Assembly: GCA_024137785.1 (NCBI GenBank) | Contig: JAHRHZ010000058.1 | Location: forward strand, 15,360,883 to 15,424,882 | From: Ginglymostoma cirratum | Taxonomy: Eukaryota | Length of the DNA: 64,000 bases | Reading direction: 5' to 3' | Shown here: one piece after another, positions 6,001 through 12,000 of the stretch | Numbering within the stretch: the first letter of the stretch is position 1 | How the letters are laid out: each line of letters opens with the position of its first letter | Program-made: the position numbers

Positions 6001-9000
6001 AATATAACAAAATGTGCAATGCACTGTTTTATGATTGGAAAACATAAATTATAACATTATTGTTCTTGCTCAAGTTTGTCATCAAAAGATAATTTTAAAA
6101 GTTGCATTTATGTTAAAAAATATATGAAGGGACTAAAATCATTTCAGGGAAAAACACTCTGATGTGGACAATCAACTGCAGCACATAATCAGGATGGAGA
6201 ATTAGTGTAAAATATGCAACTGTGATATGGCACATGATATCAAATGTGTAAAAATGGAATGCAATGGGGTAACATGAAATTAGACTGGAAACGAGGACAT
6301 GAAATTAAATTTTTAGCAGCTCAGCATGTCCTATTTTTACACATTTGATATCATGTGACACAATTGTATTTTTGTGATCAGTAATTCTGAATAAAATAAT
6401 TTAAAAGGTTTTAAAGCTTAGATGTTGTTCATGGCACACATACAATAATTGCTATTAAATGCTGGTATATTTTAGTATTGTTTCAAAGCCAATAAATGAA
6501 TGAAATTTGTGTTCCATATACCAAATTGTTGATTTGCTAAAAAGGTGCATTATTTTCAATTTACTTAATTTCAAACAAATTATAGTGAAAATGAAGTGAT
6601 AATTATGCTCAAGAACCATTTTTGACTTTACATAATCTAGCTTGTTTTTAATGAGATCAAATTCTAAATAAAATGAACATTTCTCACATTGACTATTACA
6701 ACAAGAAGTTGTTACAGGTACTTAAGACGGACATCTATTTTACAAAATCCATTTCAGGATTTCCTTTGTCAGTATTTATTCTTCAGGGCAACTTTTTGAT
6801 TTACATGCCAACTCATTGATTCTCAAAGTTTAATGAAGCAGGGCTAAAGAATTTGAAATTCACATTGCTACTTCTTGCCTTCTTGTCTTTCTTCAAGATA
6901 TTTCAAAGATTTTTCTGCCAGTTTCCCATCACAGACAGATGGTTTTTGGGAAGTCTCATTTTGAGCAGGTAGGACCATTGTGGTGCTTCCCAACAGGGCA
7001 CTAGTGGAGTGAGCCAAGGAAGTAAACTGTTGCCTCAGGCTAGGGTGCTGAAAGGTCATTGTGCTCCACAGAGCAAATTCACTGGAAACAAAGGGATGAG
7101 AGCCAGACAAAGTTGGTCTGAAAAGGGTTGGCACAGGGTAATGACTGGGTTGTGTAATTGTATGAGTGACATTGGGCAAACTTGCTACAACACTGTGGCT
7201 GTTTGGGGATACCTGGAAGGCATCAGACGGAGATCTAAAGGCAGAACTCAGAGACCAAGCTGATGAGGTTAAAGGACAGTGACCAGAGTTGTAGTCAGCT
7301 ATGTCCTTGGAGGTCTGTGGTTTGTTGTAATTCTTCGATCCTTCAGATCGCCTGGTGGTGCTGGACAGTAAGGTTTCAATTGCTGAAACCAAATCATTGT
7401 TGCAACCTTTCAGCACCAGCTCCAGGACGGACTGTTTCTGATTCGGAAATACCTTGGCTAGAACCTCAATAGGAGGCGTTTTAGACTTTCCTGAAGGAAC
7501 CATGTCCTTCAGCACGTCTTCCGACTTCAAGAACTTCGTGATGTCATTGAAGTTATATCTGGTGGCGACTTTAACGTGTTCTTTGTTTTCCTTCTTCCGC
7601 TGTATGTCATTGTTTGATTCTGGGAGGGGCAATGATAAATCGCTGTTTTGGGTATCTGTGGATGAAACTGGCTCTTCCACCTCACTTTCTGTAATCTTCT
7701 TCTGGTTGTTATCAGCATCTTTTCCTTCGACATCTTCATATTCATCTGACAATAAATAGGTGTAATGATTAATTACAATGTGATGAATGAATGTTTTACG
7801 CTATTGTGCATTGTAACATACAGGAATCTACCTTTCTCTGAACGTAAAGCCAAACTAACTTTAACTTGGGTACTAGACCACTCAAAAATTTACGTTCACA
7901 GCCCTCATATTCCCTCAGAGCAGACAGAGTGTAGATATACGGCGAGGTAGGTGCGCCCTTAAATTCGTGCTTCAAAGCTCCAGTTCCACCAGTGCGACGC
8001 TGTGCTGTACACATTAATTGTGAATAACGAAGCAGCTTTACAAGATACTTGCGGAGCTATTTTTACTGCCCAATGTAATATGTAAGTTTCCAATGTATGC
8101 TGTATCGCGATTTTTCTCTCGTACTAATTGCACATAACACACTAATCGCCATGGCAGCAGAATTTTACACTGTACAACCACGTTATTCAGTCTTTGACAC
8201 GTGTAGCAGCTCTGAAACGGTTTGTGTCATTGCAACATAATATTGCTGTGTATAAAACCTGGGATTCCGTAGATATTTTCATAGCGTTATCAGGTTGTCC
8301 TTTTTTTTAAAGGTTTGCGCATTTGAAATTCTAAGTCTGTTGATTTTATTACAAAGTTTTACAGTTCAGTGCATAATTCCTCTATATGCCCCCATCCTCA
8401 AAATTTAACTATTGCATTTTCTCTGCGTTCAAATACAACTGATGTCTATCCGCCAATCTACCAAAAAATATTATTTTCTTGACTTAAGAACATCATCTAG
8501 AGATGTTTACCAACACATTTAATGTTTATACAAGAAAACAGAATATCTAGACTCGAATCTTTTCCAACGTACACCCGTGAAAGCAGGTTGACCGGCAGTT
8601 TTTGAAGTTTGAATGTAAGATTATATTTGCGACATAGATAAAAGTTGATAATTGAAAAATGTATGATGGTGTTTAGTTAAGGAAAAATGACGCTGCTGAC
8701 AAGTGTTTTAATCAAAAACAAGGTTTTGTTGCCGGTCTAAGGACACTAAAAACTTTTACTTTGCGTTTTCCTTTAAAGACATTGCCTAACTGCAAATCCT
8801 GGCGAAAGACCTACCCAGGAAGCTCAGAAGCTAGCAGAGATTATCCGGCAATTTATTTGAAGTTTTGGAATGAAATAACTTTTATGTTTACATGACTTAG
8901 TTTCGTCAGTTATTTTTCCATTGTTACCCAGAGATGCTGGTTAGGATTTACTTTTCATTTGTTTCAAAGTTTAATATTGTGAATTATGAAATGACGACAT

Positions 9001-12000
9001 TTAAATATACATGGAATTGACCGGAACAATGAGTGAAAATATAAATAAATCGCTAGCGCACGCTAAAACGGGTTACCTATTTTACCTTCCGTTATCCTCA
9101 TTCTCAGGACTTCACTCGTCAACCTTTGAGAACTACGTTAAAATGATCCCTAATAAAAACCTTAACTATTAAATCATAATACAAAAACTCTCCAACAACT
9201 CCGAAACGTAACACATTCATTTTCTGAATGTGGAGTTAAAATGGTAAATACAGAAATGTTAGGCTGTCGTAGGAACTAATGGCAAAATGTCAATCGGGAT
9301 CAATTTCTTATATTTTTCAGATATGTAAATGTCACGTTAAACACAAGTGTCCCTGAAGTAGTCACGAATGACTTAATTGGAATAATACAAGCCTATAAAT
9401 GTGCGGGTTATTTTTATATTTCTTTTTGAAATAGCTCGAAATTATCCCAGCAGCAGGTCTCTCTTTGTTTCACTTGTAACCAGGCAATTTGATCCCTTAA
9501 TCCCTGTGCTCTGCAGTGATTAATCACGTCCCTGGGGCTGAAACGGTAAACGCGGGGCATCCAAACAGATCAATCCCCCTTTTCACCCCTGCGCAATTAT
9601 CATAACTAGAGTGTTATAGCTTTGAACTAGCCGGCTCTTTGATTTGTTGAACGTGGAAAAACAAGCAGGAAGCCAATTTGTAGTAAGAATAATCAGTTTT
9701 CAGAGAAAAGGGGATAACAAGAATGGCTTGCTTTAACAATGATGGTTCAGTTAAAATAGCATCCAGATTGTTGCAGTCACTGCGTATTGTGCTGCTCTTT
9801 CTCCTTGTTCCTTAAACCAAAGTCTGTTCCTACCGCTTGTTTGACATAGGTTATTCATGCTCGCGGCGTCAAGAAATCCTTTTCAACTATTTTGTGACAA
9901 CTAACGTTCATTGATTGAACACCGTTATTCTCATCGTCAGATCACCTTATATGGGAGATGAAGGTGAAGAGGCATAACGGGATGCTACTAAATTCTAAAT
10001 TTAATTGGTTACACATAAAAAATGATGCATTTGGCAGCAAGCAAATATTTAGAAAACGTTTGTTAAACATGCCAGCATTTCGGTATGCGCCGTTCCCGCG
10101 GTTTGGTTTAAATTCTCAATAGCTAAATAGCCATTTTCCGACATTCGCGCTCTCAGGAGGAGCCGGACACTATGGGCATGGAAAAATCTGTTTGATGTTT
10201 GGTGTAAATGTATCCCACCCAATGTTCCTGTCGAATGGATCGGCTGTAGATTTTGAGAAATCCTTATCCCTACCGGGAAGCAAAGTCATCCCATTTCATA
10301 GTCTCCCACCATTCCTGGAATAGTTCCAAATCGTACGGTAACAGAAAGCAGTAACTTCCCAACCGTTGAAATAGCTGCAGCAAACTGGGAACATCGAATA
10401 TAGTTAACGTCCCGTTTTTGGAATAGATACAACAAACTGGAGGCATGAATGTCAGTTATGTGAAGTACTGCCTTTAATAAATCACCTTGTCCACACTGCA
10501 TTTCACAGTATTTCTCATTGAGTGTGAGATCTCTGTGACCCGATAATATCCCCATCAATGTTTAGCTGTGTTTGAAAAAATACTTAAATGAGACAACGTT
10601 TCAGCTATTTTGCCAAGAAATGCAACAAGAAAACACCTGTTTAAATTCAGAGGACTACAAATGTTGTGAAGCGGCGCTGCATTTCACGTGAGGTGTTAAA
10701 GTAAAAATAAACCTGACGTCTAATATCGAGTGACTGCGACAATACAATATTCCTGCACTGCCTTATTACAGTCGAGGGAATATCTATGCGTGTCTTATAA
10801 TTTCACGCTGCTCATGTACACAGAGCGAAGAAAACCCTTGAAACATTTCTGGCCTGTGTGAATTTCCTACCCAGTTGCTGATGTAGTATGGAATCCGCAG
10901 GTGTCGTTTCGTCAAGTCTGTTTCTGCTTCTGCCGGCTGAGTACACGCTATCGGAAGGGGCCGAGTCCTCGAATCTCTCGGGGGCTGGATACATTGCTCT
11001 GTAATCCTCAGATAAAACCAGATTGCAAGGATTCTCGTTGCTTTGTTGCCTCCTGAGAGCCACCTGCGCGGCCATGACTCTCTGTCTTTCTAAGATGAGG
11101 ATGCACTTGTCGCAAGTGCAGTCTTTGAAGCGACAGTAGCGTTTATGGCCTTTGAGCCAGGACAACACCCCGTGATTCCGACACCGTGCGCACTTGGGAG
11201 TTCTCTGAGCTGGTGCTCGGGAAGACGCGGTCGGTACGTACAGATATGGAGCACCATAGCTGTTCATGGTAATCACTTTAAAGTTGTGTTTTTACAACCA
11301 AAGGTTCGATTCTCCCTCAATTCCTTTCTCAAAGATGAAAATCGCACGGGAGCAAACGCAAATCTGAATTCACAAGCAGGAGCACATATCCCAGCTGCAG
11401 CGCCTCGGTTCTATAAGCAGTTATTTCAAGTCAATCAAGTGAAACGACTTGTATGAAAGGATCGAAAATCATTTTTCCCCCGCAAACCTCTCCCCCTTCA
11501 TTCTTTGAGAAGAGTTGAAAGCAACTCCACAATCAAACAATTCTAAAAGATTTCAAGTGGTTGGAGGAGGTGATATAGGTGCCGAGATAGGGCGGGGCGC
11601 ACTCCATTCAAAAGGGATTAAAAACAAACGAGGAAGCTGGAAGCGAGGTAATAGAGCTAATGGATCACTTCATTGAGATACCCTTTCACAATTAGACTTT
11701 CCAATTCTTATAAAATGGATGTACCCCACTTCCAAAATATATTATGTGAATTGTCAATTTTCACTTCATTTTTAATTAAACTAAGAATTGATGATAATGG
11801 TATGGGAAATCGATTTCCATTTTGCACTAAATTGAATCAGTTTTGCGCAAGTTTTGTAAATCTGGATTTTGAGTTTAAAATGTGATGGGGAAGAAGGAGC
11901 TAGTTATCTCATTTTGAGATGGAACTGAGGGCTAATCAATGCATTGGTTAAACTTGGACACGTACATGTTCTTCGGTTATCTGCCACGATACTTCACCTT

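Follow-up and report, generated by a model that had tools for sequence, protein, structure and literature searches.

The window analysed here, a stretch of 64,000 nucleotides from Ginglymostoma cirratum, contains a dmrt3-type gene, and the question that it raises is whether this gene is the elasmobranch counterpart of the dmrt3 of bony vertebrates or an ancient duplicate of it. The dI6 interneurons of the spinal cord, which shape gait, have DMRT3 as a standard marker and as a regulator, and work on the origins of walking circuits uses skates and sharks. In the publications examined we found no report of dmrt3 itself in shark or skate, and no description of an elasmobranch dmrt3 or of a dmrt3 adjoining dmrt6; no paper on dmrt3 in catshark was found, and the two found on a 'dmrt3b' concern a sea cucumber and a sole.

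The gene lies on the minus strand and is intact, with two coding exons (11267-10871 and 7745-6868) bounded by GT/AG borders:

10871..11267, minus strand: coding exon 1 (132 codons + 1 base), with the N-terminal MN-YG-PY-Y motif, the DM domain and the start of the linker
11064..11204, minus strand: DM DNA-binding domain, exon 1 residues 22-68 (Pfam PF00751)
7746..10870, minus strand: single intron, 3125 bases, phase 1, GT...AG (from the splice borders)
6868..7745, minus strand: coding exon 2 (2 bases + 291 codons + stop TAG 6868-6870), with the linker, the DMA domain, the conserved C-terminal block and the tail
7372..7473, minus strand: DMA domain, exon 2 residues 91-124 (Pfam PF03474 and AlphaFold2)
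6970..7275, minus strand: post-DMA C-terminal block, exon 2 residues about 157-258 (alignment with DMRT3, motif by motif)
6871..6912, minus strand: tail KSLKYLEERQEGKK, the last 14 residues, in the place of the longer tail of bony DMRT3, which is acidic and serine-rich

The coding sequence totals 397 + 878 = 1275 nt, corresponding to 424 codons followed by the stop TAG at 6870-6868. Upstream of the start ATG at 11267 (context acc-ATG-a) stands an in-frame stop at 11292-11294, with no other ATG between the two. Exon 1 runs to 10871, where the donor GTAGGA follows, and a pyrimidine-rich tract and AG precede exon 2, which begins at 7745. These borders, the length of 1275 nt and the in-frame upstream stop confirm the uninterrupted 424-codon spliced ORF with good splice sites given in the preliminary description. 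Of the 101 stop-to-stop frames of at least 80 aa in the window, none is longer than that of exon 2 (310 aa). Exons 1 and 2 were used as separate search queries, never as one joined protein; the residues flanking the 10871/7745 junction are continuous in public ortholog models, and these unbroken models support the junction. In tblastn with gar DMRT3, the window gave matches only to the two dmrt3-type exons and to the DM domain of a neighbouring dmrt6 gene, with no remnant of a canonical DMRT3 tail downstream of the dmrt3-type gene within the window; neither Pfam nor tblastn detected another DM domain in the 6.9 kb of the window downstream of the gene. The Rfam scan of the whole window yielded 0 hits, and Tandem Repeats Finder 0 arrays at a score of at least 80.

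The DM domain in exon 1 matches the entire PF00751 profile (positions 1-47 of 47; 3.5e-25, 88.1 bits against a cut-off of 27), retains eight of the eight zinc ligands at canonical spacing (C-x2-C-x2-H-x8-H-x3-C-x4-C-x-C-x2-C), and matches the solved DMRT1 DM domain 4yj0 at 9.9e-25; the PF00751 match identifies the predicted protein as a member of the DM-domain transcription factor family. Exon 2 encodes a DMA domain (PF03474; 9.9e-16, 57.5 bits against a cut-off of 23), which places the protein among the DMA-bearing DMRTs, the group of DMRT3, DMRTA1 and DMRTA2. In the AlphaFold2 model of exon 2, built with 27 aligned sequences, DMA forms a three-helix bundle (helices 91-98, 104-113 and 118-135; block-mean pLDDT 83-91 over residues 91-130) and is the only part of the exon predicted to fold (exon 2 mean pLDDT 50.9), the post-DMA block having a pLDDT <50 over most of its length and being predicted to be disordered. 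A PDB sequence search with exon 2 returned nothing credible (best E = 0.1). Phylogenetic analysis recovered a DMRT3 group including the elasmobranch genes (100/100) and separate from the DMRTA-type representatives, with vertebrate DMRT3, again including the elasmobranch genes, at 96/94. The tree, the N-terminal motif and the post-DMA motif order place the protein in the DMRT3 subfamily. A DMRTA-type identity was rejected on the 100/100 separation and on the lack of a DMRT5_DMB domain in a Pfam scan at E up to 10.

Against gar DMRT3, the 54 columns of the DM region show 96.3% identity and the 39 DMA columns 71.8%, and the DM domain is indeed nearly identical to that of DMRT3 and the DMA domain recognisable, as had been proposed; over the entire exon 2, identity falls to 28-30%. 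Between elasmobranch and bony DMRT3, 16% of the linker, 34% of the post-DMA region and 10% of the tail are identical. With exon 1, the DMRT3 of other vertebrates were the first matches among those listed; with exon 2, the best non-elasmobranch matches were canonical DMRT3 representatives (38-40% over about 184-211 residues, about 105 bits). Elasmobranch and bony sequences agree without exception at ten of the 24 N-terminal columns, and the post-DMA region has 17 columns invariant in all sequences (including exon 2 positions W163, S164, F169, Y202, P203, W226 and R237) and 22 that are fixed but different in the two groups.

Twelve named species of sharks and rays carry the same gene; exon 2 is 71-95% identical where the models are complete (95% to Stegostoma, 71-75% to ray orthologs), and exon 1 is 94% identical to Stegostoma P0004. 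Among the best 120 of 3336 matches, all 13 elasmobranch-group entries correspond to this gene (the 12 named species and P0014). Sharks and rays are 99% identical in the DM region and 84% in the post-DMA region, and the latter value compares with 78% between non-teleost ray-finned fishes and tetrapods. The 84% between sharks and rays, set against 34% to bony DMRT3, indicates that the post-DMA region was remodelled once and has been held since. The linker and C-terminus had been described as only loosely similar, and this holds with respect to bony DMRT3, but for the C-terminal half it does not hold within the elasmobranchs. The gene is probably functional and constrained, as previously suggested, because intact relatives are present in 12 elasmobranch species and the DM domain is almost unchanged.

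The C-terminal end lies at the same position in 9 of the 12 named elasmobranch models; two models run past it, and that of Carcharodon diverges and is short. The ending KSLKYLEERQEGKK, noted earlier in place of an acidic, serine-rich tail, is real. Such a tail is present in all 8 bony DMRT3 sequences compared, and is absent from the window gene, all 12 named elasmobranch models, two hagfish sequences and the representatives P0129-P0131. Since the hagfish sequences and P0129-P0131 also lack it, its absence from the elasmobranch protein need not be a loss, and the acidic tail, being absent from the two hagfish sequences, may not define the whole DMRT3 subfamily.

An intact four-exon dmrt6 (DMRTB1) ortholog, and not dmrt1, is located about 15 kb upstream of the dmrt3-type gene on the same strand:

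57199..57652, minus strand: dmrt6 coding exon 1, with the DM domain at 57461-57598 (Pfam, tblastn, splice sites)
54735..55006, minus strand: dmrt6 coding exon 2 (tblastn and splice sites)
42798..42945, minus strand: dmrt6 coding exon 3 (tblastn and splice sites)
26573..26646, minus strand: dmrt6 coding exon 4, stop TGA at 26573-26575 (tblastn and splice sites)

The four exons have clean GT/AG borders and total 948 nt (315 aa), and about 15.3 kb separate exon 4 from the ATG of the dmrt3-type gene. The non-DM part of P0273, an ortholog of this neighbour, matched Latimeria P0294 at 1.5e-27, in agreement with the reverse search, and mammalian DMRTB1 at 0.002-0.16, with teleost DMRT1 only at 0.2 or worse. 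P0294 has 318 aa, consistent with the tabulated DMRT6 coding sequence of 957 nt (PMC3636272). The neighbour groups with DMRT6 at 100/96 in a tree whose DMRT1 sequences are all from teleosts, and the Pfam Dmrt1 domain PF12374, which scored 7.9e-15 in P0313, a teleost DMRT1 used as control, had no match in P0273 at E up to 10. The dmrt3-type gene is thus not placed directly downstream of dmrt1, its upstream same-strand gene being dmrt6 by comparison with teleost DMRT1 sequences. A read-through model from Pristiophorus fuses the dmrt3-type gene and dmrt6, giving evidence of adjacency outside this genome, and the two Narcine proteins list the same value for the longest contig, which we counted toward adjacency in that species.

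In bony vertebrates, dmrt1-dmrt3-dmrt2a and dmrt6-dmrt2b form a pair of paralogous clusters, regarded as whole-genome-duplication twins (PMC6737965), and in tetrapods dmrtb1 adjoins glis1 (PMC6984359). The dmrt3-type gene, in tandem about 15 kb downstream of dmrt6, occupies the slot in which the twin cluster has no dmrt3. Because it fills this vacant slot, its most likely origin is an ancient dmrt3 duplicate ('dmrt3b') that was kept in elasmobranchs and lost in bony vertebrates, a reading to which we assign a probability of about one half.

The phylogenetic trees also lean to an early split of the elasmobranch gene, although their support is not decisive. The elasmobranch clade was sister to cyclostome plus bony DMRT3 at 97/90, and the same topology was obtained without the DMRTA outgroup (83/68). 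A clade joining the elasmobranch and bony sequences was not rejected by an AU test (p = 0.062, log-likelihood difference 6.5), this group having been named only after the tree had been seen, and the tree program flagged the meeting of long branches and an unusual amino-acid composition of the cyclostome sequences. The elasmobranch stem is long (1.46-1.66 changes per column) and the branches within the clade are short. At 30 columns fixed differently in elasmobranchs and bony vertebrates, the three cyclostome sequences are bony-like at 10-12 and elasmobranch-like at 3-5. The suggestion in the preliminary description of an old paralog is substantially strengthened by the upstream dmrt6, which had not been noticed there, and the tree leans the same way; it is the reading that we favour, although it is unproven.

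The gene probably encodes a working DMRT3-subfamily transcription factor throughout the elasmobranchs, with a near-unchanged DM domain, a predicted folded DMA bundle and the rest predicted to be disordered. As the DM domain is almost unchanged, the protein is expected to recognise DNA sites of the DMRT3 kind. The order of the DMRT3 short motifs has been kept, many motif residues having changed once and been fixed since before the split of sharks and rays. We infer that DMRT3-type targets would be bound, but that different partner proteins would be met there.

It is also quite conceivable, although we do not favour it, that this is the sole true elasmobranch dmrt3 ortholog, that it changed fast on the stem outside DM and DMA before settling, and that its adjacency to dmrt6 reflects a rearrangement or an unrecognised ancestral gene order. 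Among the matches listed there is one DMRT3-type gene per elasmobranch species, the alignment of the protein with DMRT3 begins at the N-terminal motif and extends as far as the C-terminus, and NCBI labels the Stegostoma copy 'dmrt3a', which we take to be an ortholog-style name in keeping with NCBI naming practice. The monophyly of the jawed-vertebrate sequences was not rejected by the AU test, and the long elasmobranch stem could draw the clade toward the outgroup. The text of one survey counts Amblyraja radiata among 20 species with a 'somehow conserved dmrt1-dmrt3-dmrt2 cluster' (PMC11043485). However, dmrt6 would have had to land, in the same orientation, exactly at the usual site of dmrt1, and the unconstrained trees join cyclostome DMRT3 to the bony form. 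Moreover, given the pace of change within clades (84% and 78%), the 34% between them requires a one-off burst.

A younger duplicate of canonical dmrt3, arising on the cartilaginous-fish or elasmobranch stem, inserted beside dmrt6 and diverging fast, is improbable in our view. It would agree with the lack of a holocephalan relative among the 12 exon 2 matches, with the single cluster below 1e-30 in an exhaustive search, and with the contrast between the long stem and the short branches inside the elasmobranch clade, but it requires a chance insertion into a slot that matches the paralogous cluster, and the free tree does not nest the gene inside jawed-vertebrate DMRT3. Since the intron is retained, the gene is not a retrocopy. 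That the copy is decaying or non-functional, with a frame open by chance, is barely credible in view of the intact 424-codon frame with clean splice sites, the stop shared by nine of the 12 named-species models, and the conservation of the DM region and of the disordered C-terminal block across the shark-ray split, and this reading was rejected.

The ancient-duplicate reading has a stricter form that we consider doubtful, in which the dmrt6-linked 'dmrt3b' alone was retained in sharks and rays and the dmrt1-linked dmrt3 disappeared, with the reverse in bony vertebrates. No second, canonical elasmobranch DMRT3 was seen among the 120 best of 3336 matches listed, which is weak evidence either way. 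If such a hidden paralogy were true, the shark or skate 'Dmrt3' would be no ortholog of the locomotor gene known from mammals and zebrafish but a sister to it, half a billion years old, in which the DNA-binding domain is the same and the effector half rewritten, and a three-gene dmrt6-dmrt3b-dmrt2b cluster would be completed. An ancient duplicate would in any event allow no one-to-one comparison of expression or function with mouse, horse or zebrafish, and would supply the duplicated DMRT clusters, on which reconstructions of early vertebrate genome duplications draw, with a member so far missing. A true ortholog would be of modest interest, as it would still show clearly how a single burst of change in a developmental regulator can give way to long stasis. 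The gene offers a natural experiment, in which the same DNA-binding domain is combined with a different, strongly conserved and predicted disordered effector region.

Compared with known systems, the elasmobranch gene resembles bony DMRT3 (dmrt3a) in its two coding exons as modelled, the N-terminal MN-YG-PY-Y motif, the post-DMA motif order and the DM (96%) and DMA (72%) domains, and differs from it in having dmrt6 upstream, no acidic serine-rich end and 22 post-DMA columns fixed otherwise. With cyclostome DMRT3 (hagfish P0026 and P0027, and P0129) it shares DM and DMA, the N-terminal motif, the lack of an acidic serine-rich tail and the elasmobranch state, not the bony one, at 3-5 of the 30 diagnostic columns; however, the cyclostome sequences group with bony DMRT3 (97/90 and 83/68) and have the bony state at 10-12 of these columns. 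DMRTA1 and DMRTA2 (DMRT4 and DMRT5) have the DM plus DMA architecture in common with the dmrt3-type gene and are separated from it at 100/100. In the window, dmrt6 heads a same-strand tandem pair of DM genes, as expected for the twin cluster dmrt6-dmrt2b of gar and coelacanth (PMC6737965); that cluster, as described, has no dmrt3-type gene after dmrt6, whereas the window has one.

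The dmrt3-type gene is real, intact and constrained, and its domains, motifs and tree position place it in the DMRT3 subfamily. It consists of two exons:

Exons of the dmrt3-type gene
11267-10871, minus strand: exon 1, ATG at 11267, donor GTAGGA after 10871
7745-6868, minus strand: exon 2, preceded by a pyrimidine tract and AG, stop codon TAG at 6870-6868

The ATG is the first one past an in-frame stop, the exons are split by a phase 1 intron, and, of the 101 stop-to-stop frames in the window with at least 80 aa, none is longer than that of exon 2. The 424-codon spliced ORF with good splice sites of the preliminary description was borne out (397 + 878 = 1275 nt, including the stop; GT donor; pyrimidine tract and AG), as were its DM and DMA domains: the Pfam scan recovered the DM domain over its full length in exon 1 (3.5e-25) and placed DMA in exon 2 (9.9e-16). 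All eight zinc ligands of the DM domain have standard spacing, and this domain matched the solved DMRT1 domain 4yj0 at 9.9e-25. The exons were translated and searched one by one, and the public Stegostoma ortholog (P0004, 94–95% identical to the window exons) was used as a full-length stand-in. Ortholog models are continuous across the 10871/7745 junction. An AATAAA on the minus strand at 6775-6780, about 90 bases past the stop codon, is a possible polyadenylation signal, which would give a very short 3' UTR.

The gene is conserved in elasmobranchs. A protein search with exon 2 (1330 candidates) yielded 12 proteins from 11 named species and one further record, every one from a shark or ray, with 71–95% identity and full coverage; no holocephalan relative was found among these matches. 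A Pristiophorus model was gained through the exon 1 search, bringing the total to at least 12 named species. Among the matches listed, Stegostoma and Chiloscyllium, relatives among the carpet sharks, had the proteins nearest to those of the window. In an exhaustive search of 1.84 billion representatives, the elasmobranch cluster was the single one below 1e-30, followed by three representatives at about 1e-25 (38–40% identity), which are canonical DMRT3 sequences with an acidic, serine-rich tail. In nine of the 12 models the protein stops exactly where that of the window gene does, with the same ...ER-QEGK tail. In the Mustelus (P0008) and Narcine (P0013) models the last residues are swapped for longer, unrelated extensions, and the Carcharodon model (P0015) is short and diverges past about residue 300; these deviant ends may reflect either alternative 3' ends or faulty annotation.

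We aligned 10 elasmobranch sequences (omitting the Pristiophorus fusion, the short Carcharodon model and P0014, a further elasmobranch row) with 13 bony-vertebrate DMRT3 sequences, named, non-primate and chosen for taxonomic spread among the matches listed; the two window exons formed separate rows.

Identity by region, given as elasmobranch to bony vertebrate; shark to ray; ray-finned to tetrapod (non-teleost ray-finned fishes against tetrapods)
DM: 96%; 99%; 100%
Linker: 16%; 57%; 52%
DMA: 72%; 90%; 88%
After DMA: 34%; 84%; 78%
Tail: 10%; 70%; 61%

The C-terminus had been described as only loosely similar to DMRT3, which holds against bony vertebrates (34% after the DMA domain) but not within elasmobranchs (84% between sharks and rays). 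Past the DMA domain, 17 columns never vary in the alignment, and a further 22 are constant within either clade but differ between the two. The C-terminal half is thus homologous to that of DMRT3, which it matches motif by motif; it was rewritten once and has been tightly held since before the divergence of sharks and rays. In a second alignment with cyclostomes, 30 columns were fixed differently in the elasmobranch and bony-vertebrate clades; the three cyclostome sequences carried the bony state at 10–12 of these and the elasmobranch state at 3–5, which places most of the polarisable changes on the branch of the elasmobranch gene. The acidic, serine-rich tail was present in all eight bony-vertebrate DMRT3 sequences inspected and missing from two hagfish sequences and from the three representatives P0129–P0131. 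Its absence from the dmrt3-type gene may be the older state. With AlphaFold2 (27 aligned sequences), the DMA domain alone was predicted to fold, as three helices with block-mean pLDDT values of 83–91, and nearly all residues outside it had values below 50, so that the conserved C-terminal block resembles a series of short motifs embedded in a disordered region.

The upstream neighbour carries a DM domain of its own, also on the minus strand, at 57461-57598. The exons of this gene were located by tblastn and splice-site inspection, guided by the Pristiophorus read-through model and the Chiloscyllium ortholog:

Exons of dmrt6
57652-57199, minus strand: exon 1, clean GT/AG
55006-54735, minus strand: exon 2, clean GT/AG
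42945-42798, minus strand: exon 3, clean GT/AG
26646-26573, minus strand: exon 4, clean GT/AG

These exons sum to 948 nt (315 aa). A results table in PMC3636272 gives a four-exon DMRT6 coding sequence of 957 nt, consistent with the 318 aa of coelacanth DMRT6 (P0294). The part of the neighbour's ortholog outside the DM domain matched P0294 at 1.5e-27, mammalian DMRTB1 at 0.002–0.16 and teleost DMRT1 at 0.2 or worse, and the reverse search concurred. A tree of 33 rows and 335 columns joined the elasmobranch genes with DMRT6 (100/96), all eight DMRT1 rows being from teleosts. No Pfam Dmrt1 domain was detected in the neighbour's ortholog, the teleost DMRT1 control being positive, and the shark, coelacanth and mammalian proteins have a similar serine- and glutamine-rich terminal motif, from which the teleost DMRT1 ends differ. 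Our tests, with DMRT1 represented by teleosts, thus identify the neighbour as dmrt6. The elasmobranch orthologs carry conflicting public names (DMRT1A-like, DMRT1-like and DMRTB1 among the matches listed), and a 'Dmrt1' taken from shark annotation could be dmrt6 by mistake. Phylogeny-confirmed Dmrt1 orthologs of cartilaginous fishes are reported in PMC12318234.

In the DM domain of dmrt6, the second zinc-binding histidine is separated from the following cysteine by two residues instead of three, and Pfam aligned 46 residues of the domain to 47 profile positions. The window and 6/6 elasmobranch sequences (the orthologs P0272–P0276 and the Pristiophorus model P0016) share this shortened spacing, so it represents a conserved peculiarity of the zinc site and an assembly error is excluded. 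The dmrt6 gene (26573-57652, minus strand) is intact in the window, and no break shows in the models of its orthologs from five further elasmobranch species; in Leucoraja erinacea it is reported as pseudogenised (PMC6737965). The Pristiophorus japonicus model P0016 (741 aa) joins dmrt6 to the dmrt3-type gene in one protein, a read-through annotation artefact that is useful evidence of their adjacency in a distantly related shark.

Intron 2 of dmrt6 contains a run of 10 N (43768-43777), with a stretch of raised G+C content (0.475) just beyond it, at 44–46 kb. Two stretches show strongly positive GC skew, one between dmrt6 and the dmrt3-type gene (0.24–0.33 at 18000-24000) and one in dmrt6 intron 3 (0.12–0.24 at 32000-38000). 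A weak reverse-transcriptase fragment at 21920-22180 (plus strand; E = 0.0044, under the Pfam cut-off) is probably old retroelement debris.

Gar is described as having two clusters, dmrt1-dmrt3-dmrt2a and dmrt6-dmrt2b, in regions duplicated by the early vertebrate genome duplications, and the elephant shark as having a DMRT1-DMRT3-DMRT2 cluster (PMC6737965). The arrangement in the window, with a dmrt3-type gene directly following dmrt6 on the same strand, is the one expected if a dmrt3 duplicate was retained in the second cluster. Tetrapod dmrtb1 is reported to adjoin glis1, and GLIS1 and GLIS3 to originate from these duplications (PMC6984359); if this is the duplicate cluster, the published tetrapod synteny suggests a neighbouring gene near 56000-64000, where the open frames of at least 80 aa had no Pfam match and no such gene was recognised. 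In this interval, G+C rises to 0.43–0.46 around and upstream of the dmrt6 start.

We favour an ancient duplicate kept beside dmrt6 (probability about 0.5). In a tree of 32 rows and 452 columns, the elasmobranch genes (100/99) fell within a vertebrate DMRT3 clade (96/94) as sister to cyclostome plus bony-vertebrate DMRT3 (97/90), and this topology was unchanged when the DMRTA outgroup was removed, with support down to 83/68. A true dmrt3 ortholog that changed fast ranks second and is a tentative alternative: the elasmobranch stem is long (1.46), the tree program warned of long branches meeting and of an odd composition of the cyclostome rows, and forcing elasmobranchs and bony vertebrates together, a grouping chosen after the tree was seen, cost 6.5 log-likelihood units (AU p = 0.062). 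PMC11043485 describes a 'somehow conserved' dmrt1-dmrt3-dmrt2 cluster, Amblyraja included. The trees lean, without proof, to an early split, and a younger duplicate, third in rank, seems unlikely. A dead gene is the least probable reading by far, the frame being intact and constrained.

No paper describing an elasmobranch dmrt3, or a dmrt3 gene adjoining dmrt6, emerged from the full-text literature search. Public genome annotations already include the gene, but where it sits in the genome and how it probably arose appear not to have been noted before. The gene differs from bony-vertebrate DMRT3 in lacking both the acidic tail and a dmrt1 neighbour.
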